A stretch of DNA of 63,896 nucleotides, filler included, from Craspedostauros australis (lineage: Eukaryota), in assembly GCA_030167865.1 (NCBI GenBank). It is 16 parts of 16 records of this genome, joined end to end, with 100 filler letters (N's around TTAATTAATTAA, not from the genome) between each part and the next. Parts side by side here need not be neighbours in the genome. Positions count along the whole stretch, not along the records: positions 41,504 to 46,175 come from JALAGF010004928.1; 15 more parts are not named here. One strand, given 5' to 3'. The notes beneath the pieces were generated by a model that was given only the letters and a program-made list of their open reading frames with translations, was not told the origin of the DNA and searched no databases. Numbering within the stretch: position 1 is the first letter of the stretch; the number at the start of each line of letters is the position of its first letter. The translations under genes and the position numbers were made by a program. Positions 2,182 through 62,543 of the stretch are shown one piece after another.

Positions 2182-2226
2182 NNNNNNNNNNNNNNNNNNN
2201 NNNNNNNNNNNNNNNNNNNNNNNNNC

Positions 2227-2308
2227 CAAGTGCGTATGAGAGAATAACGGGTGAACGATGCACATATACTCGTACATCTCGACATATACTCACATGTACA
2301 TCTCGACA
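2227..2308 (-). mobile_element. Start of a copia LTR (TGTCGAGATG...) inserted into a copia pol region
   Basis: Near-identical to 34019-34096 and 55246-55328. Begins with TG on the minus strand and interrupts the host ORF after SESNHEDD; the copy at 34197-35490 continues as EILPSG. Confidence 0.85.
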
Positions 2309-5759: not shown

Positions 5760-5859
5760 NNNNNNNNNNNNNNNNNNNNNNNNNNNNNNNNNNNNNNNNN
5801 NNNTTAATTAATTAANNNNNNNNNNNNNNNNNNNNNNNNNNNNNNNNNNNNNNNNNNNN

Positions 5860-20461: not shown

Positions 20462-20560
20462 NNNNNNNNNNNNNNNNNNNNNNNNNNNNNNNNNNNNNNN
20501 NNNNNTTAATTAATTAANNNNNNNNNNNNNNNNNNNNNNNNNNNNNNNNNNNNNNNNNNN

Positions 20561-27812: not shown

Positions 27813-29339
27813 TTACCATCCCATGATTTGGAATCGCAAGTACTGGAAGGTCTGGACGATTGATCCCTTGGTGAAGACATCGGCCAGCTGCTCGCCTGTT
27901 GGGATGTGGTGCACACAGATGAACCCAGCCTTGACCCAATACCAGAAGAAGTGCCACTTGGTGAGGAAGTGTTTAGTTCGAGCAGTGGGTTGGTGACTGG
28001 TGGCGAGTGAGATGCATGCTTCATTGTCTTCGAACACGGTGCACTGGAGGTTTGTGTGTAAAGTCATGTCTGTGCCAGCGTTGTCGATGACCTGGCGGAT
28101 GAGTTGTTGAATCGGGATGAGAGTACGCATTGCGAGGGAAAGCGCAGCATACTCAGCCTCCATTGTTGAGAGCGCGATCTCCGTTTGAAGCTTGGACTTC
28201 CAGATGAGCGGACATCCTCCGAGCTTGATGAGGTATCCGGTACGCGACTTGACCGCCGTGCGGTCCTGGTCAGGCTCTTGTCTGTATAGTCCTGCGAAGT
28301 CGGAGTCAACGAAGCACGTGAGGTCCAATTGTCCAGTGGGGCGTATGATGGTGCCCTTGTCCTGCATAGTCTTCAAGTATCGCATAATTCGCTTAATCGC
28401 TTTTGCGTGCGAGCGGCGAGGGTCGCTTCCAAAGCGAGCGACTTGGGAGACGGCGAACGCGAGGTCTGGACGAGTGTTGGTAGTTAAGTAGAGTAGCATG
28501 CCCACCACAGAGCGGTAGTTCCAATTTTCATCCATGGGTGGTTCATGCGCGTTCCTGCCGAGTGCGGTTTGGGCCGCGGGTGTGTCAGCTCTGCCGCAAT
28601 CCGTCATGCCTGTCGCCGCGAGCACCTTTTGAATGAGCCCTGGCTGCCGCAAGTGGATGTAGTTGGCCTGTGGGTCACGGTTGACTTCGATACCGAGGAA
28701 CTCGTTGAAGCTTCCTTCTTGGGTGAGTTCGAATCCTCGATTTCGCATGGAGCGGATGAAGTTGTCTGCAAATTTCTTGGTCTTGGATGCGATGCCGGCG
28801 TCATCGACGTAGAGGACTATCATGATGCCTTCGCGGATGAAGAGGCACTGCTCCTGATCGCAGGCCGTAAATCCTTTGGCAAGGAGAGCTCGAATGAGGT
28901 GTTCGTACCACAGGCGAGGGGCGATTGTTAGGCCGTATAGACTCTTTCTGAGGACAAGGCAGGTGTTCGATCCCTTGCTTGACTTGAATCCTTGTGGTAG
29001 ATGGAGAAACACTGGCTTGTGGATCTCTGCTTGGACGAAGGCGTTGGTGAAGTTGATGGATGTCGTGACCCATCCCAGGACGATGGATGTGATTAGGAAG
29101 ATGCGGACGGAGGACCATGCCACGACTGGCGCATAAGTTGAAGCATCTTCGAGGATGAGATCGCCGCGGCAGCACCATCGACCCTTGTACTTTTTGATTG
29201 TTCCATCGGGGAGGCGCTTGCGGTGAAAGACCCACGTTCCTGGGTAGATCTTCTCTCCATAAGGCACAGTGCTCTTGTCGACTTCCTCCCATGTACCCTT
29301 CTCAGTGAGGTCTTGGATCTCTTTGTTCGCCGCTTGCAT
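27813..29339 (-). CDS. Copia reverse transcriptase/RNase H
   Basis: KYKGRWCCRGD, TYAPV, KSLYGL, LYVDD, TRPDL and IALSTMEAEY. Confidence 0.92.
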   Translation of the reverse strand: MQAANKEIQDLTEKGTWEEVDKSTVPYGEKIYPGTWVFHRKRLPDGTIKKYKGRWCCRGDLILEDASTYAPVVAWSSVRIFLITSIVLGWVTTSINFTNAFVQAEIHKPVFLHLPQGFKSSKGSNTCLVLRKSLYGLTIAPRLWYEHLIRALLAKGFTACDQEQCLFIREGIMIVLYVDDAGIASKTKKFADNFIRSMRNRGFELTQEGSFNEFLGIEVNRDPQANYIHLRQPGLIQKVLAATGMTDCGRADTPAAQTALGRNAHEPPMDENWNYRSVVGMLLYLTTNTRPDLAFAVSQVARFGSDPRRSHAKAIKRIMRYLKTMQDKGTIIRPTGQLDLTCFVDSDFAGLYRQEPDQDRTAVKSRTGYLIKLGGCPLIWKSKLQTEIALSTMEAEYAALSLAMRTLIPIQQLIRQVIDNAGTDMTLHTNLQCTVFEDNEACISLATSHQPTARTKHFLTKWHFFWYWVKAGFICVHHIPTGEQLADVFTKGSIVQTFQYLRFQIMGW

Positions 29340-32300
29340 CCATGCGTCTCTATTGTCATCGCGGATGGCCTCATCGAAGGTGAGTGTGTCTGGGTCGGAG
29401 ATCGAAGCCTTGTACGCTGCCGTTCATTCAGAGATGTCGAGGTCGGCGCCTGTAGCGAAGTAGCTCATGAGCTGCCAGTCAACATAAGCTGGGAAGTTGG
29501 TGGCATCTGGCTGTGGCTCAATGATGTTCACGGAGTATGCGTGTTGTTCGATGTTGGCCCAATCCTTCTGTGGGATGCAGTTGTTGGTGTCAAGAATGTA
29601 GCTCGGGTCAACTGTTAGGGTGCTTTGGAGGATGGCTTGATAGTCAGTCTCGCGCGTGTTGGGTACGTGATGGACCGGCTCGGTGCCTCCTTCTTGTACT
29701 CCGAAGTTGAATTGCTGAACTTCGAACTTGCTGGGTTGCTGCCATGGTCCTGGGCGAATGGTGCTGGTGTGCTGTCGCAGGGACTCGAACGCCAAGCGGT
29801 AGTTGTGGCTCTGTCCGATTGCATTCCAGATGGAGAGGAACTTTGCCTTGAACATTGTTGCTCCGAGTCCGCATTCTGGAGGGGTGTGTCCTTCGTTCAT
29901 TAGCGTTTCGATGTCGTCGGATTCGGATGGATCACGAAGAGAACTTGCTGCGAAGTCGAGCGCATCGAAGTGTGGGGTCATGATTCCTGTGAGCATGTAT
30001 TTGCTCATGATCTCGAGGAACTTGCGTACAGCATAGGCTGTCACTTCGTTCTGTTGTTCCTCGAAGAGGAATTCGCACTCGCGATCCTCCATGATGTGGA
30101 GCTCCATGTCCAGGAAGAAGTCTTCGTATAGATCTGTTACGTTGAATGGGGCGTCCTCCGTCATGTCTGATGGTTCCGGTTGCCACCAATCGACCATGTT
30201 CGCTTGAAACTCCTCAGGCTCCATTCTTGGTAGGTCGTTGACTGAAGCTTGTGGATTGAGAGTTCGGTAGCGTTGGCGAAGTTGGCGCAACAAGTATAGT
30301 GAGTTGACCTTGAAATCGTGGAGGTAGATAGAGAGAGGGTCACTGCCGTTTCGTTGCAGAAACTCAATTGTGTTCAGACAATCGATGACAGCTCGTGAGA
30401 ATACGTGAATTGGATACGAGTCTGGATGTATGTCAGATGTGGCGTCGTCTGATTCAATTTCTTCTTCAGCAGCCGTCGCAACACAAAGGAGGTACTCATC
30501 ACAATCGTCGTCTTCAAGCCATGCTGCCTTGCCTCCAAGGCGTCCATAGGTGAATCGCCGTGGCTCTTTGCGAATCCTGGTGCTCCGTTCTCGTTTGGGT
30601 GTAATCGTGGACGATGGTGGAATTGGTGATGAGGTTGTAGTCTCTGTCGTAGTCTCTGGTACATTTGTTGTTGGTATAGAGGACACAGGTTGAAGTGATG
30701 GTTGAGCTGACTGATCTTTCTTCAGCGGATCAGGGAGCTGGTCAGAAGGTTCCCATTGCAGTTCTTGTGAAGCGGGGCGCTCTTGGAGTTCCTCGTCTTC
30801 ACTTGCCGTAGGGGGATAGTTGAAATCTCCCTCTGTCGAAGACAGTGGTTGATTCACTCCCTCTGAAGTTGACATTGGAGGGGCGAGGTCATCATTGATG
30901 AAACCTGCGTCCGTTTGCATCATTGGTTTCTGCTTTGGAGCAGGTAGCGATGGTACCTCTGCGCCTCGATCGTCAGCGGATGGAAAGGGTATGTGAGGCG
31001 AAGTTGGAATGTTTGGGTCGATCGCATCGTTTCGCTTCAATCGACTATGGTCTATGAGGTCGGAGTTGAGGGTTTCTTCCTGCTCCATAGCCTCTATGTC
31101 GTCGTCATCAAATGGATACTGAAAGGTTGTATCACCAAACATACGTGTCCATTCTTCTGATTGGTAGTTCGGCAGGTGTTTGGGATCAGTTGCTATAGTA
31201 GCAAACCAATCGTCGAACACCACATGGAATTGAGGTGTGATGGATCCTGTTCGTGGTGAGAGAACCAAAGGCACTGTAGAAGCGTGCTTTGTAGAGAGAC
31301 CTACGTTGACGTATCGCTCTCCTCTTGGTTCCCATCGAGGTATCTTGCGTCCATCTGCGAGTGCTTTGTTGAGCACATACACAGGGCTGCCCCACACGTG
31401 TAGATTGTGGAGCTGTTTGAGTGGAAGTCGGACACGAGAGAGAACATCGTATGGGGTTAGTCCTGTTGCTGGATTGGGCACACGGTTGTAAATGTAAGCT
31501 GCGTGTACCACTGCCATAGGCCATAGCTGTGCATCAAACATGTCAGGCCAATGAATACTTTGGTGCATCATCATTGTTCAGGCCATCGACACGATGGTGC
31601 GGATGCTTCGCTCTGCTATGCCATTGTGATGGTGGGCTCCGACTCCGGCGAATTGATGGACTTGATGGAAGGCTTCGAGGTGTCGAGTGTATTCGGGTGA
31701 AGTGAAGGTGGTTGCGTTGTCTGATAGGTAAGAGCGCACGGGCACGCCGACATCGCGAAACATTAGCTCAAATCGTTCCTTGGCTTCTAGAGTAGCGTGT
31801 GTAGTCAGTGCTGCTACTGGTTCCACGTGAATGTAGCTTGATGCGTGGTCAACGAAGATAGCTCCGCCCTTATACATATCAATTGGGTCTCCTTTTCCTC
31901 TTCCTGTGAAGAGGCGGCCTGGTGTTCGTCCGACGAAGTGGTCCACTGACACTTGTTGGCCTGGGAACAGGTGGTCGGTCCGCAATACACCTTGTTTGTC
32001 ACGCACGACATGTTGAGTTATACCTGGCGAAGGGCACCGGTGCAACTTTCCAAACTGACATGCGGCACAAAGAGGGAGGTCGGTGACTTTGGCGGCTGCG
32101 GTGTGCATTTTTCGGGATGCTTCGGACCCTGTGAGAACACCTGAACGTAGAAGGAATTTCACTCTGTTGAAGGATAAGTGCCCGAGGCGGTAATGCCAAC
32201 GGAGAAGCTCCTTTTGTGGTTGAGTGAGATTGACGTTGTGGTCTGACACGGTTGACACAATTGACGAGAGTGCTGTGAGTAGGTCGTGGATGTTGTCCGA

Positions 32301-34018
32301 GTTGTAGCCAACTGAAGTTGGTAGTTTCGTTGACTTCTTGTAGTTGGCGACAACAGCGCTGCGACCCTCGTGCCCGTCCAATCCGCTCAATTTGCATGAA
32401 GAATTGTCAAAGACGATTGTTTCTCCAGGGTATTCTTTGAGGAGACTCGAAGTGCTGATGAGCTTCACTTTGGACAAGGGTACATAGAAGGCGGGCAGTC
32501 GTAGCTTGCGTGGGCTTCCACGCACGTCGAGCACATGCCATTCCACTGTCCCCAACGCATTCACTTGGATTTTCTTGAGGAATCCACTCAGAAAGGTTGG
32601 TTTTGGTGGAAGGCTTGGAGTAGTGCAGAAGTCATCGAGATCGTTCGTGACAGATATAGAGGCTCCACTGTCCCACACCAATTCGAATGGAGCGTTGGGA
32701 GAGAGACAGTTTTCTGCCTTCTGTGGAGATGCAAAAGCGTGACGATTAGTAAAGAAGGAGGCGAGGCCTTGCAGAGAAAGAAGTGCAGGAGCGTCAGTAT
32801 CACTGGGTTGAGTTTGACTTTTGCCGCAAGCCAAGTCAATACCGAGCTTGGGGTAGATGTTCCAGAGATTTCGTGAGAGGGTTGATGTGCGACTTCGTGT
32901 ACGTGTGATTGGATTTTGCGAATTGTTTTGTTTCGCGCCATATTTGGAGTACTCCAACGGTGTTTTGGGCTTATTCCAATGGTGACGTTTTTGGTTGCGC
33001 TTGCGAGTTTTGGTCCGAGCAGGGCGATGTTTTGATTGCGCGTTCCATGGCGGACTAGTATTGAGGGCTCGCATTGACACAGGATCAGTTGTTTTACTGT
33101 TCTCTGTCATCACATCGTAGAGAGTGCGCTTCACAGGTTCATTGAAGTAGATGGGGCGGCGGATGTTGCTCTTGGACTTGGTTCGAGACATTGCTTGGAT
33201 GGTGTCGACAGCTCTGATGGGGCTGTGTCTTCGTGGAACGTTTGAGTGAAGGAGGAGCAGCGTGATGGCGATTATCATCCAGGCGTTAGTAGCTGTGACG
33301 TACCACCCGTGCTCGACTCCAAGTGTGTAGACTTGGATGCTCACGAAAGAAAGAATTGATCCGATCACACAGCTGAGGTGGTTGAAGGAGGTGAAGAGGT
33401 TCCACACAAACGACCACCATTCCTTTTCGTCTTGGCTAGTGGTGGCTGTGAAGCAGGTCCAAGCGGCCATGTCGACGACGAGGTGGTCAGGCTTGGCGTT
33501 GTTGTTGCCTTTACCTTTTGGCTTGAAGTTGTCTTGATGGCTCTCGGTGTTATGCGAAAGACGCCAACGACGACACTTCGCGCACCACATGAACGTCTTG
33601 TCGTAGACAAGCTTGCGCTGTGGTTCACCCGCTTTGGGTGGCGTGGATGCCCAACCTTGGTTCGGTTTTCGATTGCCGTTGTTGTTGTTGTTGGGCTTCC
33701 TTGGTTGATTCTTCTTCTTCGCGTTGTTCCTTCCGAAACCCTTGTGTTGCTCAAGGATGTTGGCCTTTGGATGCTTGGCCACGTTGTTGAAGTACGATTG
33801 CCTGGGGACGTTGCGGTCCTTCACGCGTCTAATGGCGTGCCAACGATCTCCACGTACTTCGTTGTCGTACGAAGCCTGCGCTTTGTTGCAGATTGCCATC
33901 CAGGTGAGGTCATTGGCTGCGAGCTTTGGAAGAGCTTCTTGGTACGTGAATATGGGGAGACGCTTGAGGATTGTCTCAAGATCATCCTTCATCACATAAA
34001 GAGGACGGCGGTATTGTT

Positions 34019-34096
34019 TGTCGAGATGTACATGTGAGTATATGTCAAGATGTACGTGTATATGTGCATCGTTCACCCGTTATTCTCTCATACGCA
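34019..34096 (+). mobile_element. Start of the TGTCGAGATG LTR inserted into the family B gag
   Basis: Reverse complement of 2227-2308 and 55246-55328. Confidence 0.85.
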
Positions 34097-34196
34097 NNNN
34101 NNNNNNNNNNNNNNNNNNNNNNNNNNNNNNNNNNNNNNNNTTAATTAATTAANNNNNNNNNNNNNNNNNNNNNNNNNNNNNNNNNNNNNNNNNNNN

Positions 34197-35490
34197 TCGA
34201 ACGTTGTAGGTTCGATGTGCTTCTCTGGTTCCTTGTTCTCGTCCTGCATCGACAGTCCGATGTCGATCGCTGGTGATTCGATGATGATTGCATTCATTCC
34301 GTACAGTCCTGTTGTGCTGTGATGAGTGATCTCGATCTCTTCATCTTCGTCTTCGATTTCCTCATCATCTGTAGTTTCGTTGTTGGAGTCGTCGATCATC
34401 TCGTCGCTGAGTTCGTCACTCGCCTCATTGGATGATGAATCGCTCTCATAGCCTTCTTCCTTTCGACCTNNNNNNNNNNNNNNNNNNNNNNNNNNNNNNN
34501 NNNNNNNNNNNNNNNNNNNNNNNNNNNNNNNNNNNNNNNNNNNNNNNNNNNNNNNNNNNNNNNNNNNNNNNNGGATCCTCTCCTTTCTAGCTATGTCACG
34601 CTTGCTTGGTTTGCTTGGTGGAGATCTGGATGGTGTGTCATGTGTAGACCTCGCTGGTGTATTCGGAGGAGTAACATCTGTCTCGTCATCGGCTTCGTCG
34701 CCGGAGGGTAGGATTTCGTCATCCTCATGATTGGATTCGCTCCGATCTTCCTCGTCATTCTGGATTAGTTGAGTTACTGCTCCGTCGTCCTCATTATCCT
34801 CATCATCGCTGTCTGATAGGATGTAGTATCTATTGCTGTCAGCGAAAGATACTCTCTTCGCTTCCGATGCTTGACGCGTTGCCGTCCTTGGCGTTGCTCC
34901 CTTCCGTCCAATGGTTGTGAAGCCGTCTGCGTCTGTTGTTCCTGTTTCGTTGGATATGTTCGGTGCTGGTGCCCAGCCACGGAACTGTCCGTACGATTGG
35001 TTGAGCCACTTGATATCGCGTGAGCAGATGAGTGACTTGGTCGATGGTCTGTACATGTTGTAGACCCCTGATGCGTGTTGGTGTGCATATCCGATGAATA
35101 CCATCTCTTCTCCTCTGTTCTTGAGTTTAGCGGTAATCCCGCCGTAGGTAGTCTTCACAACACCCACCTCTCCAAACGTGCGGAGCGCGTCCGCATATGG
35201 TGGATCGTTGCCAAAGAATTGTCGATGTGGTGACTCCTTCTGGTTCTTCGCTACAGTGATGTTGGCGATGGCGGTGGCAGTGCTAGCAGCNGCTGCCCAC
35301 AGGCCATGCCTATACTCTTCGTCGAGCTGTGCTCCGTTGAGCATGGAGCGGATCTTGGTGTAGAGGTACGCGAACTTGCGTTCTACTCTGCCATTCTGTT
35401 GCGGCATGTTCGATGCCGTGTATTCGAATTTCACGTTGAGTCCTGCATCGATGAGAATATCCTGCGTGGACTTGTTCTCTCCGCTGTTGT
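34197..35490 (-). mobile_element. Copia family A fragment: integrase C-terminus and IN-RT linker
   Basis: PQQNGRVERKFAYLYTKIRSML and MVFIGYA. Highly similar to 2309-3070 and 11530-12760. Confidence 0.9.
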
Positions 35491-35590
35491 NNNNNNNNNN
35501 NNNNNNNNNNNNNNNNNNNNNNNNNNNNNNNNNNTTAATTAATTAANNNNNNNNNNNNNNNNNNNNNNNNNNNNNNNNNNNNNNNNNNNN

Positions 35591-41379: not shown

Positions 41380-41882
41380 ATACAAGTGAAGCAATGGTGT
41401 GTGNNNNNNNNNNNNNNNNNNNNNNNNNNNNNNNNNNNNNNNNNNNNTTAATTAATTAANNNNNNNNNNNNNNNNNNNNNNNNNNNNNNNNNNNNNNNNN
41501 NNNCAAAAATGAAGAACACATTTGTCCGAATTGACACAATGTAACATGTCGCAGTACTCTGAAACTTGTTTTCGGCATCACGCCCGTCCGCCAAACGACA
41601 CGAAAATGACACTCGTTTGCACAAGCGAACCTCACAACTAACCAAGCACGAGATTGAGGATCGGGCGAGAGCGGGGATCAGGCACGCCCGGCGCGCAACT
41701 TCAGCGCTTGACGGGAACTACGTCATAAAGCACGACTCGATTCAGCTCAATCACGAGCTCGTGGAGTCGTGAGTGGACAAATTACCGTGTTCCCCAGGTG
41801 GCGGAAAAAGAGGGCTCCCCCCCCAAAAGAGAAAGAAGTGGAAGAAAAAGAGGAACAACGAGAAAAAGTGAGCGGCCGGCGA

Positions 41883-43580
41883 TCACATGCAAAGCGCGGT
41901 GATCCGCAACCGGTCCGCGAGTGACCACTGCAGATACGCCGTAGGCATATCCTCGTTAGCGCGCTGTCGCCGCCAGCGCCCGTGTTCGGAGACCTCGAGT
42001 TTGGTGGCCGCTCGCATACATCCCGGACGCTTCCGGGAAACGTGGGTGCGTCCCCCTCGCCGATACATGTGAAACGAGTAGAACCGCGTGGGAATGGGCA
42101 CTTGTTGCGCGCCGATGGCCGATCGTAGAAAGGTGGCGCCACGCTGTTGTTGCTCCAGCAGGGATGGATACACGAACGTCGTGCGGTAGAATTGCGATGT
42201 CCACGGCTGTCCCGAAGGATGGTGAGCCACGAGGTCCGTTGGGACGTGGTGATCCCGCTCTGCTCGCGCGCGAAGCATCCAGTCGCCGAGACTGAGACCT
42301 GACGAGGTGCGGAAGGCAATGACGACGTCGGCTTGTCGACTGCGATCGGACTTCGTCTGCATGGCCAGGCGTAGCAGTACCGCGCCTGTGTTCGGTGGGA
42401 GGTCGTTGTTGCTGGCGTCTCGTGGGTCGAGAATGGTGACATCCGACCATGAGATACCGAAGGTTTCCGCCGCCCGTAGCCATCCCAGCCAGCCCATGAG
42501 GTTGATGACGCCCGCCATTGCTGCTGTCCGCCACTGTTGTGGCGTGACCGCATGTTGGTATTGGTGGAGGAAGCTTCGGTCCATGAAGTGGATGTGACGA
42601 GAGAGCAAGGCGGCTGGAGGGCGCGAGTCTTCGCCGAGTCGCGTGCGCATGCCCTGCGTCAGCATCGAATACCCGAGATGGTCCGTCGGGAGGCATGTGT
42701 CGACGGTGATAGGTCGCTGTTTGGCGTCGAGCATGGCGCGTTCGGGATGCGCGATGCACATATTCCACATGCCGAAGGCCGATGCAGCGCTGCGTAGTCC
42801 GCGTACGGTGCTGAACTTGATGGTCTGGGCGTCGAGTGCGCTCTTACGAGAGGGCGCCTGTGTGGCGTAGTGCTCCTGCGCCCACATGATCGGGATCGTG
42901 TCGGAGCAGGGTGGTGATTGGATGTCGGGTGGTTGCATCGTCGGGATGCCGTATTGCAGACCGAACTTGCGCAGCACCTGAATCTTGCTGCTGTATGTGG
43001 TGAGCGTGCCCGCTGCCCAGTTGTGTGCCATGTCGATGATGCGCATACGTTCCAAGCGGAGGAGGTGATAGTCGGTGGGGCTGGAGATCAGTTCCCGCTG
43101 GAGGTGCACTCGGACCGTGCATGCTTCACAGACAAAGAGACCCAGTATGCTGAGGTTGGGTGGCAACACCAGGCCCTTGTGATTGCGGAGACGCGTGCGG
43201 AAGGGAGGTCCGGCTCGACAGCACAGTTTGTGGTATCGGGTGTGGCACGGTTGGTAGGAGATGCTGTCGTGAGTGAATCCGCTGTCTGCGAAGTGACATT
43301 GGTGCGCGGCGGTGTGCCGATTGATGCTCCTAGCACAGCCCGTGCAAACGCTCGGCGATCCGTTGGTGATGCCGCCGATTCCGGGAGCGGGGAGCAAAGT
43401 CCAATCTGGGAGGCGTGAGAGAGCGAGTGTGTGGAGAGACGCGGAGGAGGAGGTTAGGAATGTTGAGAGGAGAAGAAGAAGAGAGAGACAGGTCGTCATT
43501 GGTGAACACTCCGACCCGGATGAGATGACGTGAGAGTCGGACGAAAGTGCGTTGGAGCACTCTGGGGACGAGGATGACAA
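41883..43580 (-). CDS. Tyrosine recombinase with N-terminal Cys/His-rich domain
   Basis: Catalytic set WLRAAE (R), QTKSD (K), FHMYRRGG (HxxR), HGRW and MPTAY (Y). The true start is uncertain. Confidence 0.88.
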   Translation of the reverse strand: MSSSSPECSNALSSDSHVISSGSECSPMTTCLSLLLLLSTFLTSSSASLHTLALSRLPDWTLLPAPGIGGITNGSPSVCTGCARSINRHTAAHQCHFADSGFTHDSISYQPCHTRYHKLCCRAGPPFRTRLRNHKGLVLPPNLSILGLFVCEACTVRVHLQRELISSPTDYHLLRLERMRIIDMAHNWAAGTLTTYSSKIQVLRKFGLQYGIPTMQPPDIQSPPCSDTIPIMWAQEHYATQAPSRKSALDAQTIKFSTVRGLRSAASAFGMWNMCIAHPERAMLDAKQRPITVDTCLPTDHLGYSMLTQGMRTRLGEDSRPPAALLSRHIHFMDRSFLHQYQHAVTPQQWRTAAMAGVINLMGWLGWLRAAETFGISWSDVTILDPRDASNNDLPPNTGAVLLRLAMQTKSDRSRQADVVIAFRTSSGLSLGDWMLRARAERDHHVPTDLVAHHPSGQPWTSQFYRTTFVYPSLLEQQQRGATFLRSAIGAQQVPIPTRFYSFHMYRRGGRTHVSRKRPGCMRAATKLEVSEHGRWRRQRANEDMPTAYLQWSLADRLRITALCM

Positions 43581-46175
43581 ATCCAGTATCCAATGGCTGC
43601 TCCGCCCAGCACCCCAGCAGGAAGTAGATCAGCTGATAGGCCAGTTCTGGCGGCGGTGCCCACAGGGTGATGCAGTCCATGCAGCTCTCCGGGTTCCACG
43701 GGCGGTCCCATCGACGTAGTAGTACAGTCGTGAGGGTGTCGGGGAAGGCGAGGGACGCGATCCGGGGGACATGCCGTTGTTGGAGTGGTGCCGGGGCCAG
43801 ACATGCGGAGAGGATCTGCGATGAGGTCGGTCTCTGATGGGGCCGCATTGATCCAGATCCCACGGCTGAGTCGGTCAGTCCCTTCTGTGATGATGGCGGT
43901 GCCAGGGATGTGGATGACTTGGAGGTGACACGACAGGTGAAGCTCGAGCTGCTTGATCTTTCGAACCATCTTGTGCAGTTCCGGTGATGTGGAAGTGCCT
44001 CCATCGACAACACAGTAGGTGCACATGTTGTCGGTGAAGTAGAAGAAGGTGGCTCCAAAGACGTCGGTGGCGGATGCTGGGTTGTTAGCAACCTGCTGTA
44101 GAGTGCTGAGCAAGGTGCGCAGCTCCTTCCAGTTGGAGGAGTGGCGTGTTGCCACGAGGGTGGACCATGTGCCCATCCACATACATGAGGGTTGACTGGG
44201 GAAGAGGATGGTGCCACCGGTGCCTGTGCCACTGCCGTCTCCAAAGCTGCTGACGAGAACGCCGGTGCGGGTCGCGCGACCGCTTCGTGCGGTATCGTTG
44301 GTGAGCGCTGATCGCCACCACTGGAGGTCTTGTGTGACTGCGAGGGTGATAGCTGTGTAGCTGAAGTATGGTAGATCAGGTTGGTCCCATTCGTCGGAAT
44401 GGACGAGTGCGTAGAGAGCCCGCAGGTAGTTGCGACCGAGGTACGATGGTGTGGCCTCGGCGACGCTCTCCAACATGCCTGCCAGAACAGCGAGGGCGAG
44501 TTGGGAGACTCTTGTGGGTGTGGCTTCGATGTAGTCCAACACCGCAATGATCTTGTCCCGTTTCAGCGGAGGAATGCGTAGACGTGGTGTGCTTGTGGTG
44601 TCGAATATCAGTGCAGTGTACTTGACAACCTGGCTGGGTGGTGTGAGCTTGCCAGGGTGACAGAGTAGGCCGCAGTCCACCGACAGGTCGAGGAAGGCCG
44701 ACAGTGCCGCCGCGGTCTTGTGGCGTGTGGGTCCATGGATGATGAAGTCATCACAGTGGGCCCACACGAGAGCGGCGGGCGATCCGTCGGATCCGATGGC
44801 CACAAGTCCCTGTCCTCTGGTGTGATCATAGTCCAGGCCTTGGTCGAATGCGGTCCACCACATATTAGAGCATTGAGTGCCTTGGTATATCGGAGAATGC
44901 TCGCGTAGTCGTCGGAGGAAAGCAGTTCCTAGCCTGCATGCGATAGCCGGTGATTGGCTAGATCCCATNGGCAGCCCAGCATACTGGTACATTTTTCCCG
45001 AAATCGGATGTTGGATGCCGAGAAATCGCCTTTCGTCAGGACGCGTTCGAAATTGGTAAAAATACTTCGAAGCGTCCACCACCGCCGACCATCCACCGTG
45101 ATACATTTGTTTCAAAATGTCGCGGCTTTTTGGAAAAATGGTCGGGTCGGCCCCAATGAACTCGTTGGTGCGATTTTCTCGCATGTTGGCGATGATGCGC
45201 CATTGATCGGGCTGCATGGGTTTCGGTAGGGCGAAGAGTGGAGCATTAACGACCACTGGGTGGAGTGGGTCTTGCGGTTCGACGACACCGAGGCTGAGTA
45301 GCTCGTCGACGAAGTCCGCTGCCACCTGTTGTTGCTCAGCGGTCATGTCGGTGTTATCATGGTGTCCTGATTCCGGAGTGCCCAGAAAATTCATCGGACT
45401 CCCTTCTCGTAGATGGTCCCAGTGTTGCTGAGGGAATTCCCACCAGAGCACTCGTAGCTGTTTGGGGACGGGGTGTGTGTCGGTGTAGTTGGTGCGGTGC
45501 ACGCGTAGGTCGTCGAGTCCGTCCTCGAGTAACGAAGCGGATCGTTCTCCGTATCGCGCACAGGCTTGCCGCAGGTTGCGCACACGGCGCCGATACCAAT
45601 CGCCGCCAGGAGAGAGGTCGGGTGGAGTCCATAGATATGGGGAGTCGCCGTCGTTGTTCTCGGGGATAGTTGGTTGGGTCTGTCTTCGTCGTCTTCGTCG
45701 TCGTCGTCGTTCTGTCGTTGGTGTCGTTGGTGTCGTAGGTTGGGAGTGTTCGGAGTGCTGATGTACTTGGCGGGCCAAGTCCATCAGCGGTGTGGAGAGG
45801 TACTCCAGCAGATGTTGTGACGGAGTGTGGAAAAGCACTCGCCATTTCGCCTGCTTCAGCACCTCTCCGGGGAGCGAGCTGCCCAGGGCTTTCCCTAGCT
45901 CGTCTGGAAAGAGGCGTCGGACGCCTCTATCCGTCTGAATGAGGGCAAGCCGGTCCATTGGCATCGCAGATGTTGCGCTGTCGACGACCGACTGGGCGTT
46001 GCTCTTCGTTGTATAGCATCGTCGAGGAACTCCGCAATGGCGAAGACAGTTCGCCATGCTTCGCTCAGATGCAGGTTGGAGGTCTGGCCATTCGATGCCA
46101 GATGCCGTCCACGTTGTTGCCGCCCTCACCACCACCGTATAAATCACCGATACCGCTCCACCCATTCGTTGATTG
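43330..46175 (-). CDS. YR-element Pol: possible C5-MTase tail, RT, RNase H, then a DIRS-type methyltransferase-like domain after a frameshift at ~43840
   Basis: RT: PLFALPK, WRIIANM, VDASKYFYQF, GLxMGSSQSP, HCDDF. RNase H: FGDGSGTG, SSNWKELR, FTDN, HIPG, TDRLSRG. Second frame: TLWAPPPELAYQLI...FVILVPRVLQRTF. Confidence 0.85.
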
Positions 46176-47938
46176 NNNNNNNNNNNNNNNNNNNNNNNNN
46201 NNNNNNNNNNNNNNNNNNNTTAATTAATTAANNNNNNNNNNNNNNNNNNNNNNNNNNNNNNNNNNNNNNNNNNNNGATGCATGAGATTGGCGTGCGGAGC
46301 GCACTCGACGTGGCTCGCAATGTGTACGCAATCAACGACATGCTGGAGAACAGCAACCTTACTCCGATCCAACAGACGCTGATTGGATACAGGAGTCGCA
46401 TGCAAGGGGTATGGACCGCACGAGTGAACCTGGTGATGACCAGGATCCTACTCACGATGAACGTGACATGGATGGATACGTCATGTGGGCAATCGAGTGT
46501 ATTGAGAATGCCAGCAGGTCAGTACTGACAGACCTGGGAGATGACGACTCTACTTCAGGGATGAGTACCCCAGATAGAAGAGTGACTTGGGAGCGACGTG
46601 CGGATACCATCCGAAGCATGGAGACCGACGACGCTGATGAGAGCAGAAGAGCCGGAGACGACACAGATACAGAAGACGCTGCTCGAGGGCAAGATGACTT
46701 GCTCCCTACCGAAGGGACGATGAGACGGGACGAGACGACTTGGTCGAGGACGCACCAAACACAGTCCCAATCGCAGAACCTGTCATGCACATGCCGAGGA
46801 TGCTGAGTGCTCTCGTGGGATACAACAATACACCCATCCGAAGGAGGAGCGAGAACTTAGATCAGGTGGAGAATCAGAATCAGAGAATGATGAGGGGTAT
46901 GAGACCACTCAAGAGATGACTACCACACCACCGGCGACAGGAGGACCCAACTTTCACACAGAAGGGTCAACAGTCAACAGAGATATCGCAGGCTTGATGA
47001 TTGGCACCACTCATGAGAAGATGAGCCTGGGTGACTTCATCGCCGCGAACCAAGCATTGAACTACATACAGAACGAAGAGGGATCCGAGCAACCAAATGT
47101 CGCAATGATGCTGGATCCGACCACAATTGACGAATGACGGGGTCATGTGGATCCCAAGAAGAGCAATGAATGGCACGAGGCCATGATGGTACGGTTCAGT
47201 GATATAGCCATTGCATGAGCATGGCAGATGATCAAGAAGAACCGGATGCCGAATGATCGGCGAGATACTACGAGCACAGATATGAGATCGGTGTGCGATG
47301 ACAATGAGATCGATGAGAGAGAGACACGAATCTGGAAAGGATACAGCTATGAGAGCGCGAGCCATGAACGGCGGATTCCAGATACAGTGAGCCAAGACGC
47401 ATCGATANACGATCAATGAGAGAGACGCGGGCATGTCGGATGAAGAATCGAATGACAGAGCCGGAAGGGAGGAACCTCAGATGAATGGAGGATGAATGGC
47501 AGGATGCCACCAACCACTCCCATGACGAAGAAGCTGCAGCATGATGAATCGATGCTATCCAGAAGAGGATGAAGGNNNNNNNNNNNNNNNNNNNNNNNNN
47601 NNNNNNNNNNNNNNNNNNNTTAATTAATTAANNNNNNNNNNNNNNNNNNNNNNNNNNNNNNNNNNNNNNNNNNNNCGATTACATTTCAAATCAAGAGGAG
47701 AAACTCCGGGTTGCAAAACGAACACAGACCAAAGCAATGAAGCAAAATCCATGCATAATCATACTCACATTGTATTCTAGTCTCTTAGTTACAAACACAT
47801 CTCTGAGTTACTAGTTGTCAACAGAGCCAGGCAGTATCCTCGTCCAAATACGGGCGAGTTCACTGCTGGAAAACAACAACGCTGCGTGATGTGCAGGCGG
47901 TATGGACACCATGCCAATTTTGCACTCACGTTGTGGGA

Positions 47939-50900
47939 TCAACCTGATGCATCCGTCAACACGGAAACATCATCGTCTTCATGGTCTTCTTCAAGACTAT
48001 GGCTTTGATGCATCGTGCCGCTATGATCGTTGGACATGTACGACATGCCGCCCCCTCTCCCGGAAACGCTGCCCTTCGCTGAACCCTGCATCCATTTGGT
48101 CTTGTGATCGTTCACATCCACTCCAGCCCGCCACTCTGATCGTCCATTACGTGACGATGATGCATCAGCCATGGACCCCGTTGTGTTGTGGATGTCAATA
48201 CCGACAACCCGTTGATGAGCATTCTTGTGGTCACCACCTTGATGCTGCGCTTCGCCACGCCCATCTCCAATGTCCAAGTACTTGGATCTGCGCTCTTGGA
48301 TATCTTTGACCTTGACAGAACATCCCCACTCTCTGTAGTATTGCACAGCTCGTGTCATGTACTTACGGATTGAGTCGCGGAGAGAGGTCTGCAAAGCGTA
48401 CATATCCGGGCTGGGCTTGGTGCGAGCGACTCTCCCGAGCGCTCGAATGAAGTGTTCGGCAGCCTGCTCGCATGCAATGGCGCAATAATGAGTCAACGAT
48501 GCCTGCTGGGCCACAACGATGGCCATAGCGTAGGCGTCTTCTGCGCGGCGGATAGTCCAGAGGTCAGATCCTGTGGCCTTCAGAGAGAGCCTCTCGGCCT
48601 TGAGCAACTGCAAGAGGCTCGTTGCATTGCTTCCCTTGTTGGCGACGAAGGCTCTGGCAAGGCCGATTTGCCGCTTCAGCTCCTTCTTGTGTTTGGCCTT
48701 GCCTGTGGCGAGATACAAGGCAGACGAGGACAGTCCTTGGGCGAGCATGACGGTCGTGTCGTAGCAATAGTTCTTGGAGTGATCTGGTAAACCATAGTAC
48801 AGCTTCGTCATTTGCTGTGCGAGTTCGTATTTGCGCAAGAGGATGGTCGGCACCAGCAAAGCAGGGTATCTCGCTAGCAACCGATTTGCGTCGCTGCCAC
48901 GTTTCTTCAGGTCCTGCTGTGTGTGTCCCTTGATGTCATCCCAATCGATTGGTTGGCCACCCGTCAAGTATTGCGACACCATCAATAATGCCACAGATGC
49001 GTCATCGTTCATTTTGATGTTGTAGACTTGGTATTGCTTGAGGACATTCTCCAGACTTCCCACCAAAGGCTGAAGCTTGCATCCAAAGTAAAACGCCAAC
49101 ACCTTGCTGCATTGAAGGTTCACCAGCCCCAACTCGAAGTTTCCAGATTCCATCCCAAGGGAATAGCCTTTCTCCAGGCCCTTGATGCATTTGCTATGGG
49201 GCTCGCTGCTTACGTAGATCGCTCCAGATGTGACCACATGAACCCAGCCAGCCTGTTCCGGCCCGCCTACGATTTGCAAGAGCTTGTGCGAAATACCAGC
49301 ACACCGCATCACCAAACTTCGATCTTCGCCGCAGATGTCGAAGATCATTCCCAGTGATGCGAACACCGGTGCAGACTCGGGACTGATCCCGTATCGCATG
49401 GTCGTGCGGGTCTGTTTCAGCGCTTGCACAAGCCATTGTATTGAATCACCGGTGAGAAAAGATCGGACGCCAATCTCACGGACGAATCGTACTGCCATCA
49501 GTATCTTTGGGTCCTGGAGGATGGGCAGATTCAGAATGTCCTCGTCCGTGTTGTTCTTGAGGAGGGCCTTCATCCACAGGAAATCATTCGCCACATGGAA
49601 AAGGTAAAAGCGTCTTGGGAACACGCCTAAATTCCGTGCTACCGATAAGCTGACGGAAAGAGACTCTGTCACCTTGTCCTCTCGTCCCAACGCTTGGGCC
49701 ATGACGAAGTAGGTCGGGAGCTTCTCATCCAGCGTCCGCGCCTTCTTGATGATGGCATTGCCAATGTTGTGGCCGGTCTCGAAGTTTCCCAACGATAGCT
49801 CCACCTCCGACCGGCATCGGAACAGCTCCAGACACAGATCATAATGATCCTCCCACGGATTGCGCACGCGTTGCAGCGCCACGGATGCCTTCTGCAGGTA
49901 GGCGGCCGCTGACGACAGCGCGGCCATCTGGAGTGCCTTCTGGCCGACTTCGAGGTTGAAGGTGACGAGGAACAGACGATCCTTGGTTGACATGCTGTTG
50001 AGATGATTGGCCGCAATGAAGAGCAGACTGTCAACGTCTCTGATGAGATGCTGCTGCTGTTGCTGCTGGTGATGATGGTGGCCTGCATGATTGGTGCCTG
50101 TAGGTCCTTCGGCATCATCGTGTCCCTTTTGATCTTCCTCTTGATCTTCGTCTTGATCAGCGATCAATGTCGCGGCTGCTGCTGCCGCTGCTGTCGTTTT
50201 GGACTTTCGGTATATGTCCAGGAGACAGTGACCGATCTGCAACCGGAGCTTGTTGCGGGCCTCACCAAAAGGAATCAACCCATGAGCTGCCTGCTGGACG
50301 CGATCATGTGCGAAGTGATACCGACTCTCACCGATGGAGTTCGTGCCAAGGCCCTCCAGAAGAGCCTTCTCCAGAACAGAGTGCAGCCGATCGATCGTCC
50401 ATGCGGAAGCTTCCGGTATGGTCATCTGCGCGACTCCTTCTGCTGTCACTCCTTCTCGTCCTCTTTGGAACATCATATCCAACCCGCCTTGATCATTCAC
50501 ATGCTGCAACACCACCTGCAGCACATGGATATCGAAGGTCGATCGAATGTAGGCCGCGACTGAAAGAGCATATTGGAGATCATGTGGTTGATCCTTGAGC
50601 TGCATCTCGATGATGGCCACGATGTTGTCACCGATGGGAAGATCATCACCGTCGCCGGTGGAGTGGCTCAGATCCCATTCCCATCTCTTGGAGGTGCGAT
50701 TGTGGAGGATGATGCCCCGTCTCTTGAGCTCTTCGATGGCCTGGAGCGTGAAGTAGACGTTGCCGTGTGTCTTGTTGTGGATCTTGGATACCAGCACCTT
50801 GAGGTCGTCGTCATCGCGGGATCGATGAAGGAGGTGAGACAGCCACTGGGTGCAGTCTGTCACGGATAAATCACCCAGGGTGATCTGCTCGAGTTGTTTG

Positions 50901-52249
50901 GTGCTCTGGTTGACATCGATGTTGCCATCGATGTTGACGTCATCCTGGGACAGCAGCCGGTCGAGGAACGATGTTTGCAAGGGTGCATATGGCGAGAGCT
51001 CCATCGCTTGATGGTTGTGAGGATCTGTCTCCTGTCGGATCACACCGAGCAACATGAAGTCGTTGAGACCAGTGTCGGTGAGAAGAGATGCCAGAAGCTC
51101 GAGTCCGGCTGCGGATGACCATTGCAGATCGTCAATGAAGACATAGACGGGTCGTTGTGGAGTGGAGATGGCCTTCATGAATTGGATGAAGATGTAGCAG
51201 AGGCGGTTCCATGCACTCTGGGAGTTAGCTGTGGCTGCGTTGTCACTGGTATCTCCGCCAACGTCAACGCCAACGCTAGCTACCTCCGACGTGGCGTGGC
51301 CAAGCACGCTGTTGGTGGATACGGATCCATTGCTCAGGTCATTGTTGGATGTGGCACGCTGCACGCTTCTCTTTGATGGAGTTGATCTGCCGGTCATGAC
51401 ACTCGAGGATGATCCCACAGTGTCGGAGACCAGCACAGATAGAGATGGGACGACCGCGATCAAAGCTGCCATGGCCGAGTGGGTCTGAGCCGGAGTGCCG
51501 ATGTGCGTCTGGCTGACCGAGTCGTTGTGAGTAATGTTGTCTTGGTCTTGGTCGGCGACGTCGGTGTCTGCGGCGAATGCATTTTGTACGCATCGTCGCA
51601 CTCGCTCGAGCTCATCAGCAGATCCTTGCTTGAGCTGAGTCGCGAAGTCATCGAGTGCTTGGATGATGGCGGAGAATGGATCCTTGCTGCCTGTGTACTC
51701 GTCGTACTTTCCACGCATCACGTAGCAGCAGGAGCATCGTTGTTGTGCCTGCTGCGGATCTTGGTTCTCATCTGAGTGCTTGTTTGACTGGTCTCTGACC
51801 CCGCAGGAGCAGCACGTTTGATTGAGAAAGTGCTCAATGAGCAGGGACTTGCCTGTTCCGCTTGTTCCCCAAACCAAGGCAGCTGGGAAGATGGGTTGGT
51901 CGTCGTGGATGCGCTGTCGGATGTTGCGCAGATGGCGCAGCTCTTCATCTCTTCCGAAGAAGAAGAAGTCGTTGGTAGGCTGATCCGGGACGTGCGGAAG
52001 CATCGCCGCGGAAGTGGACGAAGACACGGAATCTGTTTCCTCAGTCTCGTTCGACTTGGGAGCCGGGAGTTGGGGAATCGATAGGGTGATAGTGGAGCTG
52101 GCCTCCGTTGTCGTTGTCTGGTGTGGAGTGTCGGCTGAAGACGACTCCGCACATGCAGAGCTATCATAGGTGTTGCCCATGTTGGCCTTCATGGTGGTAC
52201 TAGTATTGAACTCAGTGTTGGCGGTGCTCTTGGCTTTATCAGTGTTCAT
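47939..52249 (-). CDS. Large STAND-class/AAA_16-like P-loop ATPase with helical (TPR-like) C-terminus
   Basis: FFGRDEEL, Walker A GTSGTGKS, GKYDE...PFSAI, Walker B VFIDDLQW, THGNVYF and YHFAHDRVQQAA. One open frame of ~1440 aa; the first ATG is at 52249, while the ORF track starts at a GTG at 52339. Confidence 0.88.
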   Translation of the reverse strand: MNTDKAKSTANTEFNTSTTMKANMGNTYDSSACAESSSADTPHQTTTTEASSTITLSIPQLPAPKSNETEETDSVSSSTSAAMLPHVPDQPTNDFFFFGRDEELRHLRNIRQRIHDDQPIFPAALVWGTSGTGKSLLIEHFLNQTCCSCGVRDQSNKHSDENQDPQQAQQRCSCCYVMRGKYDEYTGSKDPFSAIIQALDDFATQLKQGSADELERVRRCVQNAFAADTDVADQDQDNITHNDSVSQTHIGTPAQTHSAMAALIAVVPSLSVLVSDTVGSSSSVMTGRSTPSKRSVQRATSNNDLSNGSVSTNSVLGHATSEVASVGVDVGGDTSDNAATANSQSAWNRLCYIFIQFMKAISTPQRPVYVFIDDLQWSSAAGLELLASLLTDTGLNDFMLLGVIRQETDPHNHQAMELSPYAPLQTSFLDRLLSQDDVNIDGNIDVNQSTKQLEQITLGDLSVTDCTQWLSHLLHRSRDDDDLKVLVSKIHNKTHGNVYFTLQAIEELKRRGIILHNRTSKRWEWDLSHSTGDGDDLPIGDNIVAIIEMQLKDQPHDLQYALSVAAYIRSTFDIHVLQVVLQHVNDQGGLDMMFQRGREGVTAEGVAQMTIPEASAWTIDRLHSVLEKALLEGLGTNSIGESRYHFAHDRVQQAAHGLIPFGEARNKLRLQIGHCLLDIYRKSKTTAAAAAAATLIADQDEDQEEDQKGHDDAEGPTGTNHAGHHHHQQQQQQHLIRDVDSLLFIAANHLNSMSTKDRLFLVTFNLEVGQKALQMAALSSAAAYLQKASVALQRVRNPWEDHYDLCLELFRCRSEVELSLGNFETGHNIGNAIIKKARTLDEKLPTYFVMAQALGREDKVTESLSVSLSVARNLGVFPRRFYLFHVANDFLWMKALLKNNTDEDILNLPILQDPKILMAVRFVREIGVRSFLTGDSIQWLVQALKQTRTTMRYGISPESAPVFASLGMIFDICGEDRSLVMRCAGISHKLLQIVGGPEQAGWVHVVTSGAIYVSSEPHSKCIKGLEKGYSLGMESGNFELGLVNLQCSKVLAFYFGCKLQPLVGSLENVLKQYQVYNIKMNDDASVALLMVSQYLTGGQPIDWDDIKGHTQQDLKKRGSDANRLLARYPALLVPTILLRKYELAQQMTKLYYGLPDHSKNYCYDTTVMLAQGLSSSALYLATGKAKHKKELKRQIGLARAFVANKGSNATSLLQLLKAERLSLKATGSDLWTIRRAEDAYAMAIVVAQQASLTHYCAIACEQAAEHFIRALGRVARTKPSPDMYALQTSLRDSIRKYMTRAVQYYREWGCSVKVKDIQERRSKYLDIGDGRGEAQHQGGDHKNAHQRVVGIDIHNTTGSMADASSSRNGRSEWRAGVDVNDHKTKWMQGSAKGSVSGRGGGMSYMSNDHSGTMHQSHSLEEDHEDDDVSVLTDASG

Positions 52250-52391
52250 TTTATGACATGCATAATCGTGCCTTTGTTGGTGGCGCTGTGGGTGCTGATG
52301 CTGGAGACGTGATGCATTTGGCGGCGTGTGATGAACCACCGACCCCAGTGAAGGAGCGATGTCATGACGGCCACCCGCGAGAGTGATGATG

Positions 52392-52932
52392 CCAAACCAG
52401 GATGCATGTGAAACGGTTAAATCGGCGTTACAACGTGGACACAGGTGTCAACCAATCAGGTAGCAACAGCCACGTAACTCAGCGTGCAAGAAGGTCTCCA
52501 TAACACTCATAATCTGCGTTCTTACGCTTTCACAACTCTTTTGGGTTTCATGCGTGTAATAACTTGGTTTATCATTCTCATCCGCTCAATAGAGCACGCG
52601 TTAACACGAGGGACTGCCTGAAGAGGCATCGAACATACTGGGGCACCGCTCTGAGGCTGAACCGTCATCAGCTGGCACGGCTTGTATTGTGCTGTACCTC
52701 CTTTGACCATGATGTTCTGACACATGATGGCCGGTGTCAGAGGGGTACAATCCTACCGTTCGCTTTCGCGCGGTTGGGGTGACAATGGTGGACGCACCTA
52801 CCGTAGGCCATACGGGGATTCCTACGAGGGCACTTGCTGTTTCTCTCAGCATGGGATCGTGTGAAATTCACCGACCCTGTGCTCCTCACCGTGGATCAAC
52901 ACCATGACTTAACACGCAGAATCCCCTTTTGG
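52392..52932 (+). repeat. Putative 5' LTR bounded by CCAAA...TTTGG
   Basis: The start CCAAAC(N7)CATGTGAAACGGTTAAA matches the sequence after the PPT at 56542, and it lies directly upstream of a gag ORF. Confidence 0.5.
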
Positions 52933-62443: not shown

Positions 62444-62543
62444 NNNNNNNNNNNNNNNNNNNNNNNNNNNNNNNNNNNNNNNNNNNNTTAATTAATTAAN
62501 NNNNNNNNNNNNNNNNNNNNNNNNNNNNNNNNNNNNNNNNNNN

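Follow-up and report, generated by a model that had tools for sequence, protein, structure and literature searches.

We analyzed a 63,896-nucleotide stretch of DNA from Craspedostauros australis (assembly GCA_030167865.1; hereafter, the window), focusing on a DIRS-like retrotransposon that occupies one of its contigs (JALAGF010004928.1, positions 41504–46175). Our main conclusion, to which we assign a probability of roughly 75%, is that the Pol protein of this element opens with a domain of the C5-cytosine methyltransferase (C5-MTase) fold, of which the window holds the C-terminal third, and that this domain has lost its catalytic loop and is kept as a conserved pseudo-enzyme that probably binds nucleic acid. 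The conclusion draws on full-length relatives of the protein, on profile and structural comparisons with known C5-MTases, and on a motif-by-motif inspection of the family.

The window consists of 16 contigs with 15 artificial linkers between them (N44-TTAATTAATTAA-N44, at positions that include 2126–2225, 5760–5859, and 62444–62543), and open reading frames (ORFs) on either side of a linker are not genomic neighbors. The Pol ORF of the element, P0001, is one open frame of 892 residues on the minus strand (43496–46174, by translation). It starts at the contig edge with NQRMGGAVSVIYTVVV (46127–46174), and all sequence 5' of NQRMGGAVSVIYTVVV is missing because the frame is cut at 46175/46176 by a linker. 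An initial annotation, made from this DNA alone, had quoted N-terminal peptides of Pol as being in frame with the reverse transcriptase (RT), and translation reproduced them exactly; LIQTDRGVRRLFPDELGKALG lies at 45881–45943 and shares its frame with the RT and RNase H motifs of P0001. The same annotation had rightly placed C5-MTase motifs I and IV beyond the contig break. Neither the missing 5' part nor a second copy of the element was found on the other window contigs (tblastn, blastn). The features of the N-terminal region are as follows.

41504–46175, genes on the minus strand: DIRS-like retrotransposon, 5'-truncated copy (from the linker map and ORFs)
46176–46275, no strand: artificial contig joiner N44-TTAATTAATTAA-N44, one of 15 identical linkers; non-biological
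45782–46174, minus strand: C-terminal ∼131 residues of the C5-MTase-fold domain at the Pol N-terminus (from blastp to the relative P0003, row 26 of alignment A2, the profile, and the model of a relative)
46124–46162, minus strand: motif VIII equivalent GGAVSVIYTVVVR; family consensus GGAIDQSRLVVVR, with Q and R replaced by V and Y in the window copy
46043–46063, minus strand: RSMANCL, the family-invariant R-x-M-x-N-x-L of the target-recognition region (R185, M187, and N189 in 77/77 rows)
45881–45931, minus strand: motif IX equivalent DRGVRRLFPDELGKALG, aligned to M.HhaI 'RKLHPRECARVMGYP' and to 'VTLTARESARCMD' of the relative P0116
45797–45832, minus strand: motif X position FHTPSQHLLEYL; helix kept, Gly-Asn replaced (family consensus T-T-S)

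Relatives and boundaries of the N-terminal domain

With residues 1–135 of P0001 alone, a word-based protein search matched none of 402 candidates. Widening the query to residues 1–330 returned five proteins at 37%–42% identity (E ≤ 0.001, 4131 candidates), four of which reach farther upstream than the window copy does. When P0001 was searched exhaustively with HMMER, 2142 proteins were found at E ≤ 1e-3, 258 of them at E ≤ 1e-30. In many of the best 150 of these 2142 relatives the match to P0001 residues 3–4 starts at their own residues 117–177, and relatives 37%–48% identical to P0001 lengthen the ORF upstream by 115–175 residues. When residues 1–300 of one such relative (P0003) were compared by blastp with 156 proteins, 44 matched, P0003 itself and P0001 included; P0001 residues 5–131 aligned to P0003 residues 173–299 with 36% identity (E 1.6e-14). 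On the strength of this alignment and of the relatives that extend upstream, the window N-terminus corresponds to the last ∼131 residues of a ∼285-residue domain that opens Pol. Several relatives have a methionine exactly at the start of the domain.

We built an alignment (A2) from 25 domain segments of relatives plus the window piece as row 26, with P0002 residues 1–294 as its first row. All seven columns that are invariant over the 26 rows are kept in the window copy. A hidden Markov model made from A2 found the domain in 113 of 207 collected proteins (E ≤ 1e-5), including every one with at least 250 residues ahead of the LWWEFP motif. A profile search aimed at longer proteins scored 8000 candidates and returned 55 of them at E ≤ 1e-5, and at least 55 further clusters at 90% identity carry the domain; 51 new clusters were added in this way. 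The 55 proteins are unnamed, and their precomputed Pfam annotation is PF00078 or none. The combined family alignment has 77 rows, 76 of which span motif IV.

Evidence for a C5-methyltransferase fold

Used as a query against PDB sequences, the A2 profile had 11 M.HhaI variants as its top matches (E 6e-5 to 1.8e-3), with profile positions 100–179 aligned to HhaI residues 104–184, that is, motifs VI–VIII. A weak colinear stretch follows, in which profile positions 235–283 align to HhaI 269–321 (motifs IX–X) and the family sequence 'gvRrLlaeElakGlGlp' falls on HhaI 'KTRKLHPRECARVMGYP'. Other C5-MTases appear in the same listing at E 0.03–1.6. A further alignment, with hhalign, placed A2 on P0116, a distant relative with a canonical methyltransferase described below, with a probability of 90.9% (E 1.2e-6) over 267 colinear columns.

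AlphaFold2 run on A2 gave a model of P0002 residues 1–294 with a predicted local distance difference test score (pLDDT) of 91.4 and a predicted TM score of 0.89. A Foldseek search of this model against PDB returned 160 matches at E ≤ 0.001, and 39 of the 39 among the matches listed belong to the C5-MTase family. They include HhaI (E 1.2e-12, TM score 0.68–0.75), M.MpeI, HaeIII, DNMT2, DNMT3A/B, DNMT5, DNMT1, and MET1. The comparison with M.HhaI that the initial annotation had called for came out in favor of the fold. Against a viral library, the matches were giant-virus and phage cytosine methyltransferases, and nearly all named top matches carried such a name. A feature search of the Atlas pointed the same way, with PF00145 clusters at scores of 0.88–0.89, which we treat as a lead only. 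P0002 is thus predicted to have the two-lobed C5-MTase fold, a Rossmann catalytic lobe plus a target-recognition lobe, and the window copy to hold the last third of the domain; the segment at 45782–46174 comprises the motif VIII remnant, the target-recognition region, motif IX, and the motif X helix.

The canonical pattern of motif IX is R-x-L-T-x-x-E-x-x-R-L-x-G-F. The peptide VRRLFPDELGKALG, which the initial annotation had read as a diverged motif IX, is supported as the motif IX equivalent of a C5-MTase-fold domain N-terminal to RT: the M.HhaI profile match, the hhalign alignment to P0116, and the AlphaFold model with its Foldseek matches all bear out the homology. It is very improbable that the likeness is a chance match in a gag-like or otherwise unrelated N-terminal region, as might be suspected from the failure of Pfam to find any family at E ≤ 1 (PF00145 included) on the window's N-terminal 131 residues and from the empty word-based search with residues 1–135, because the blastp match to the homologous region of P0003, the M.HhaI profile, hhalign, and a set of structural matches confined to C5-MTases contradict it.

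Loss and conservation of motifs

The window copy holds none of motifs I–VI, and what follows on those motifs concerns its relatives. The Pro-Cys of motif IV, which carries the catalytic cysteine of canonical enzymes, is found in 0 of 76 family rows. The position aligned to that cysteine is occupied by His (23 rows), Ser (10), Thr (9), Phe (5), and others, and Cys stands there in one of the 73 rows with a residue at this position, in the context 'RGCV'. The loop itself is shortened: set against P0116 and P0137, which have the canonical enzyme, the noncanonical members are some 15–20 residues shorter around PCQ. In place of FxGxG, motif I has (Y/F)G-T-I-(D/G)-(C/G)-G, and just 24 of 59 rows have Cys20 in its loop. 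Just ahead of the motif II site the family has mostly Arg-Arg, with no acidic residue conserved at P0002 positions 38–43. At motif X the canonical Gly-Asn has given way to T-T-S, which reads T-P-S in the window copy.

A different set of positions is under evident constraint. G151, R185, M187, N189, P221, and E241 are invariant in 77/77 rows. Of the 77 rows, 70 retain Q156 and 68 retain R158 at motif VIII, while R235 of motif IX is found in 74 and E241 of the same motif in all. Across 54 full-length proteins, the mean pairwise identity is 0.36 for the domain, 0.55 for RT, 0.53 for RNase H, and 0.40 for the conserved tail at the end of Pol.

The target-recognition region also contains an invariant (D)PMP loop (P0002 positions 218–222), which in several members is followed directly by Cys. 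Elsewhere in the domain, 26 of 77 rows contain Pro-Cys dipeptides; their positions are scattered, and several come right after the invariant P221. We considered a relocated catalytic cysteine and rejected it, since these dipeptides are scattered and unconserved.

The window copy departs further from its family. It has V and Y in place of the near-invariant Q156 and R158, and at two motif X positions that the family conserves well it has P and L. Together with the cut at the contig end and a frameshift ahead of the tail (see below), the loss of the motif VIII Q and R indicates that this copy is probably dead. Between the DNMT-like domain and the pre-RT region it also carries a Thr/Pro-rich insertion with an Arg run, TTPTTPTTERRRRRRRRRQ (45660–45730, minus strand), which is encoded by a simple repeat of GTC/GTCGTC type and is absent from the five closest relatives.

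Canonical enzymes in distant relatives

A full-length PF00145 domain N-terminal to RT was found in two of 29 long relatives, P0116 (E 2e-21) and P0137 (E 5.7e-24); a third, P0016, showed a subthreshold trace (E 0.028). The canonical domain spans residues 38–350 of P0116, where the match covers profile positions 2–321 of 324, and residues 4–322 of P0137. Both proteins are ∼30% identical to P0001 over the matched stretches (HMMER search), and both show Pro-Cys, the E-x-V of motif VI, and the Gly-Asn of motif X. For both domains the best PDB sequence match was M.HhaI, over the whole domain, with E about 5e-18. DNMT3 chains were absent from the PDB sequence matches, which extended to E 10 for P0116 and to E 0.001 for P0137. 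This pattern argues indirectly against the Dnmt3 origin that has been described for Symbiodinium DIRS elements (PMC5890265), and judging from these matches the capture of an HhaI-like enzyme may have been independent of SymbioDIRS-Dnmt3.

We inferred a tree of the RT–RNase H region with FastTree (30 proteins, midpoint-rooted, no outgroup), from which P0001 and its closest subgroup were left out by the motif filter. P0116 and P0137 together formed the sister group of all degenerate members. Such a topology would fit a single capture and, after it, a single loss of the catalytic loop.

Interpretation of the domain

The scenario we favor begins with an ancestral element that would have captured a cytosine methyltransferase of bacterial or viral (M.HhaI-like) type in front of its RT. 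The distant relatives P0116 and P0137 would retain the canonical enzyme at that place, whereas in a large clade that includes the window copy the Pro-Cys loop would have been shortened and the cysteine lost, with the cofactor motifs I, II, and X altered. Constraint would have stayed on the strand core, the target-recognition region, and motifs VIII and IX, and the domain would persist as a nucleic-acid-binding pseudo-enzyme that may assist retrotransposition, perhaps in keeping hold of cDNA or template or in influencing the choice of target. The comparisons show the homology, the fold, the place of the domain in Pol, the motif losses, and the conservation. From the motif losses we infer that the domain most likely no longer transfers methyl groups, and the binding role and the direction of evolution are likewise inferred.

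Several observations weigh against this reading. As to the fold, L-asparaginases also appear in the PDB profile listing (E 0.013–0.21), which we took as chance; hhalign of A2 against P0137 reached a probability of only 56.7% (E 1.1e-4); and the PF00145 scan of the N-terminal domain, a check proposed by the initial annotation, gave a match in only one of 26 domain members, at E 0.019, under the curated cutoff. As to the loss of activity, the argument is drawn from motif loss alone and, for motifs I–VI, from relatives instead of the window copy. The glycine-rich loop of motif I survives (51 of 58 rows have Gly at positions 16 and 21 alike), so that cofactor binding is possible. In 69 of 76 rows there is a conserved glutamate that coincides with the ENV glutamate or precedes it by one residue (the latter in both alignments), and R158 aligns to HhaI R165 in the A2 profile and to the last Arg of P0116 motif VIII in hhalign. 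The kept motif VIII Arg and the Glu near ENV could amount to an intact base pocket that supports some residual chemistry. The evolutionary direction, finally, depends on a midpoint-rooted, outgroup-free tree of 30 sequences that leaves out P0001 and its closest subgroup.

A first alternative is that the domain is a functionless, decaying relic carried by an RT that is still under selection. Indeed, only the linker is less conserved within Pol (mean pairwise identity 0.36 for the domain vs. 0.55 for RT), the catalytic motifs of the domain are lost, and further losses are seen in the window copy. But it occurs in every collected protein with a long enough N-terminus (113 of 207 overall), its reading frame is open in all domain-bearing proteins, six columns are invariant in all 77 rows though the proteins are only ∼36% identical, and a 26-row alignment suffices for a model that folds with a pLDDT of 91.4. 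We regard a relic as improbable on these grounds.

A second alternative, which fares somewhat worse, is that the domain is an active C5-MTase that methylates the cDNA or DNA of the element through a noncanonical nucleophile or a rearranged active site; the initial annotation had suggested that the element might methylate its own DNA. The confidently predicted fold, the conservation of the domain with its invariant residues, and the survival of the motif I loop, the motif VIII Arg, and the Glu near ENV would all suit an enzyme, as would the canonical enzymes at the equivalent place in P0116 and P0137 and the description of Symbiodinium DIRS DNMT domains that methylate CG in yeast (PMC5890265). 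Yet Pro-Cys is missing from the full-length relatives (0/76, with Cys at the aligned position in 1/73 rows), as are FxGxG, the Gly-Asn of motif X, and any conserved acidic residue at motif II. Their catalytic loop is shorter than in P0116 and P0137, Cys20 is present in a minority of rows, and the window copy is also without the motif VIII Q and R. The CpG content adds to this: at 1.06, the observed/expected ratio of the element falls among those of the other window contigs (0.58–1.11) and thus shows no trace of methylation-driven CpG decay. Self-methylation therefore finds little room in these data, and the full-length relatives give a two-sided answer to the initial annotation: Their catalytic motifs are absent, while their profile and structural match to C5-MTases is strong.

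As a separate observation on base composition, the lowest CpG observed/expected ratio in the window (0.58, vs. 1.06 in the DIRS-like contig) belongs to the last contig (62544–63896), where TpG is high (1.78).

RT, RNase H, tail, and probable recombinase ORF

The order of the element is a DNMT-like domain, RT, RNase H, and a small conserved tail, with a separate, overlapping tyrosine-recombinase-like ORF downstream. The features beyond the N-terminal domain are listed here.

44642–45142, minus strand: RT core, with HCDDFIIHG at 44732–44758 (Pfam RVT_1, residues 345–511, E 8.9e-4, below the curated cutoff)
43859–44245, minus strand: RNase H-like region, from FGDGSGTGTGG to GTDRLSRG (invariant columns in alignment A1)
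43698–43844, minus strand: frameshift interval between RNase H and tail (tblastn with three relatives, frame -2 to frame -3)
43333–43770, minus strand: C-terminal Pol tail LWAPPPELA...LVPRVLQR (row 25 of alignment A3), out of frame with RT in the window copy
41883–43628, minus strand: ORF with tyrosine-recombinase features, first ATG at 43499, overlapping the tail (from the ORF list)

The RT is 43%–48% identical to its best relatives, and 15 of the 34 relatives scanned passed the 29.6-bit cutoff of RVT_1. Pfam gave no RNase H match in 43859–44245, and we assigned this region by reading its motifs. On the ORFs of contig 41504–46175 Pfam gave no rve match that would indicate a DDE integrase. Terminal repeats were not found in the contig, where the repeat search gave only short matches of chance size; their absence is expected, as the copy is truncated.

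The interval 43698–43844 carries a frameshift or a sequencing error, the relatives being in frame there. In relatives, an in-frame conserved tail of ∼190 residues follows RNase H, with the consensus ...TxWxPPPExARQ...LFxxPRxLQxxW.... None of 25 tail members matched a Pfam family, the frameshifted tail ORF of the window copy gave no Pfam match at E ≤ 1 either, and there was no PDB sequence match. A model of the tail (pLDDT 85.9) had KsgA as its best Foldseek match (E 5.4e-4, TM score 0.42), among weak matches to adenine methyltransferases of KsgA/Dim1/Erm type that were mixed with dihydrofolate reductases. By this model, the tail looks like the beta4–beta7 half of a Rossmann methyltransferase, with a proline motif where motif IV would be; we take its WxPPPE to stand where adenine methyltransferases have (D/N)PP(Y/F/W). 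A Dam-like methyltransferase was rejected as an identity for the tail because Pfam and PDB sequences gave no match and the Foldseek matches were weak and mixed.

The ORF at 41883–43628 is probably a tyrosine recombinase, judging by a C-terminal pattern seen by eye of R (GWLRAAE), K, H-x-x-R (FHMYRRGG), H/W (HGRW), and Y (AYLQW). It matched no Pfam family at E ≤ 1 and had no PDB sequence match; its nearest named Atlas cluster (score 0.96) has PF00589 in 18% of its members, and other clusters listed there have PF00589 or PF02899. The architecture put forward in the initial annotation, C5-MTase–RT–RNase H–MT plus a tyrosine recombinase, is therefore recovered as a fold domain, RT, RNase H-like motifs, a conserved tail, and an ORF with recombinase features, with the amendment that the tail is weakly methyltransferase-like.

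Comparison with known elements

The closest described system is SymbioDIRS-Dnmt3 of Symbiodinium, a DIRS-type element whose Pol ORF encodes both a C5-MTase and RT, the tyrosine recombinase having an ORF of its own (de Mendoza et al. 2018, PMC5890265). According to the description given there, PF00145 detects the DNMTs of these elements; they group with eukaryotic Dnmt3, their main catalytic residues are intact, and in yeast they methylate CG (PMC5890265). Our family resembles them in combining a DNMT-type domain with RT in Pol and a YR-like (tyrosine-recombinase-like) ORF alongside, and in an RT too divergent for a good Pfam RVT_1 match, as is also described for SymbioDIRS (PMC5890265). It differs in that PF00145 fails (1/26, E 0.019) and Pro-Cys is absent (0/76), a contrast drawn with the published description of SymbioDIRS and not with its sequences, and in that the canonical relatives P0116 and P0137 match M.HhaI best, with no DNMT3 chain.

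With M.HhaI and other bacterial and viral C5-MTases the domain shares the two-lobed fold, the colinear motifs VI, VIII, IX, and X, and an Arg at HhaI R165 (68/77 rows); unlike them, it has no Pro-Cys, no FxGxG, and no motif X Gly-Asn, its loop is short, and it is fused to RT. Integrase-bearing long terminal repeat (LTR) elements with DAM and DNMT offer another parallel, namely two methyltransferase-derived modules in one retroelement. Those LTR elements have a chromodomain, an integrase, and Pfam-detectable DAM and DNMT, the DNMT being sister to DNMT4, whereas the present element is DIRS-like, its DNMT-like domain is N-terminal and degenerate, and its tail has no detectable DAM (0/25). DNMT3L resembles the degenerate domain in keeping a C5-MTase fold without the catalytic residues, presumably in a noncatalytic role, but it is a host regulatory partner of DNMT3A/B, whereas the domain described here sits in a transposon polyprotein.

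DIRS/PAT elements are described as having a putative methyltransferase (MT) domain after RNase H, which separates DIRS from Ngaro/Viper (PMC4157794). The present element follows the same order of RT, RNase H, a further conserved domain, and a probable tyrosine recombinase (PMC4157794), but its tail belongs to no Pfam family and has a weak KsgA/Erm likeness (TM score 0.42), as set against the DIRS MT as characterized in that description.

In the literature listings and cited passages searched, we came across no account of DIRS elements that carry a degenerate DNMT-like domain, nor of such elements in diatoms. New here, as far as sequence comparison goes, are a large DIRS-like clade in which a fused DNMT is conserved though its catalytic loop appears lost and an affinity of the canonical relatives that is bacterial or viral (HhaI-like) and not Dnmt3-like. 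It is also new that one DIRS-type element combines the DNMT-like domain with another module, the tail, that is weakly methyltransferase-like.

DNMT-carrying retrotransposons form a recent and small class, which reportedly includes DIRS and LINE (long interspersed nuclear element) retrotransposons of Symbiodinium, a Klebsormidium Gypsy element, and the EpiLTRs of a 2026 preprint. The known ones were found through Pfam-detectable, catalytically intact domains, whereas the family described here carries the DNMT–RT fusion in a form that domain scans miss. Because the degenerate domain escapes Pfam, counts of transposon-borne DNMTs based on PF00145 would be too low. That the fusion persists after loss of the catalytic loop would point to a noncatalytic use of the methyltransferase fold by a transposon, and P0116 and P0137 on one side and the degenerate clade on the other form a natural before-and-after pair for experiments. 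In our view the element family is of moderate interest and the broken window copy of low interest.

A bolder version of this picture is tentative, and we doubt that it holds in full. A widespread, unannotated DIRS-like clade would have captured an HhaI-like methyltransferase independently of Symbiodinium Dnmt3, and the enzyme, now dead, would act as a DNA-gripping and perhaps cytosine-flipping reader that steers integration toward the host methylation machinery or shields cDNA from it. With the half-methyltransferase tail, the element would then carry two exapted relics.

Other contents of the window

The other window contigs hold mostly Copia and LINE elements. Copia-type fragments lie at 2174–5803, 9758–11104, 12669–15764, 27813–34079, and 34145–35542 (all minus strand), with Pfam matches to Retrotran_gag_2, zf-CCHC, Pol_BBD, rve, SH3_retrovirus, and RVT_2. 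A LINE-like element with an open frame of 1960 residues (20510–26392, minus strand) combines an Exo_endo_phos endonuclease with RVT_1. The only large nontransposon ORF seen in the window, an open frame of 1502 residues at 47939–52447 (minus strand), matches the ATPase domain AAA_16 (E 2e-21), contains long stretches of low complexity, and may be a STAND-type host gene. The single Rfam match in the window is tRNA-like (11201–11260, plus strand; 30.4 bits vs. a cutoff of 29) and adjoins a Copia fragment.

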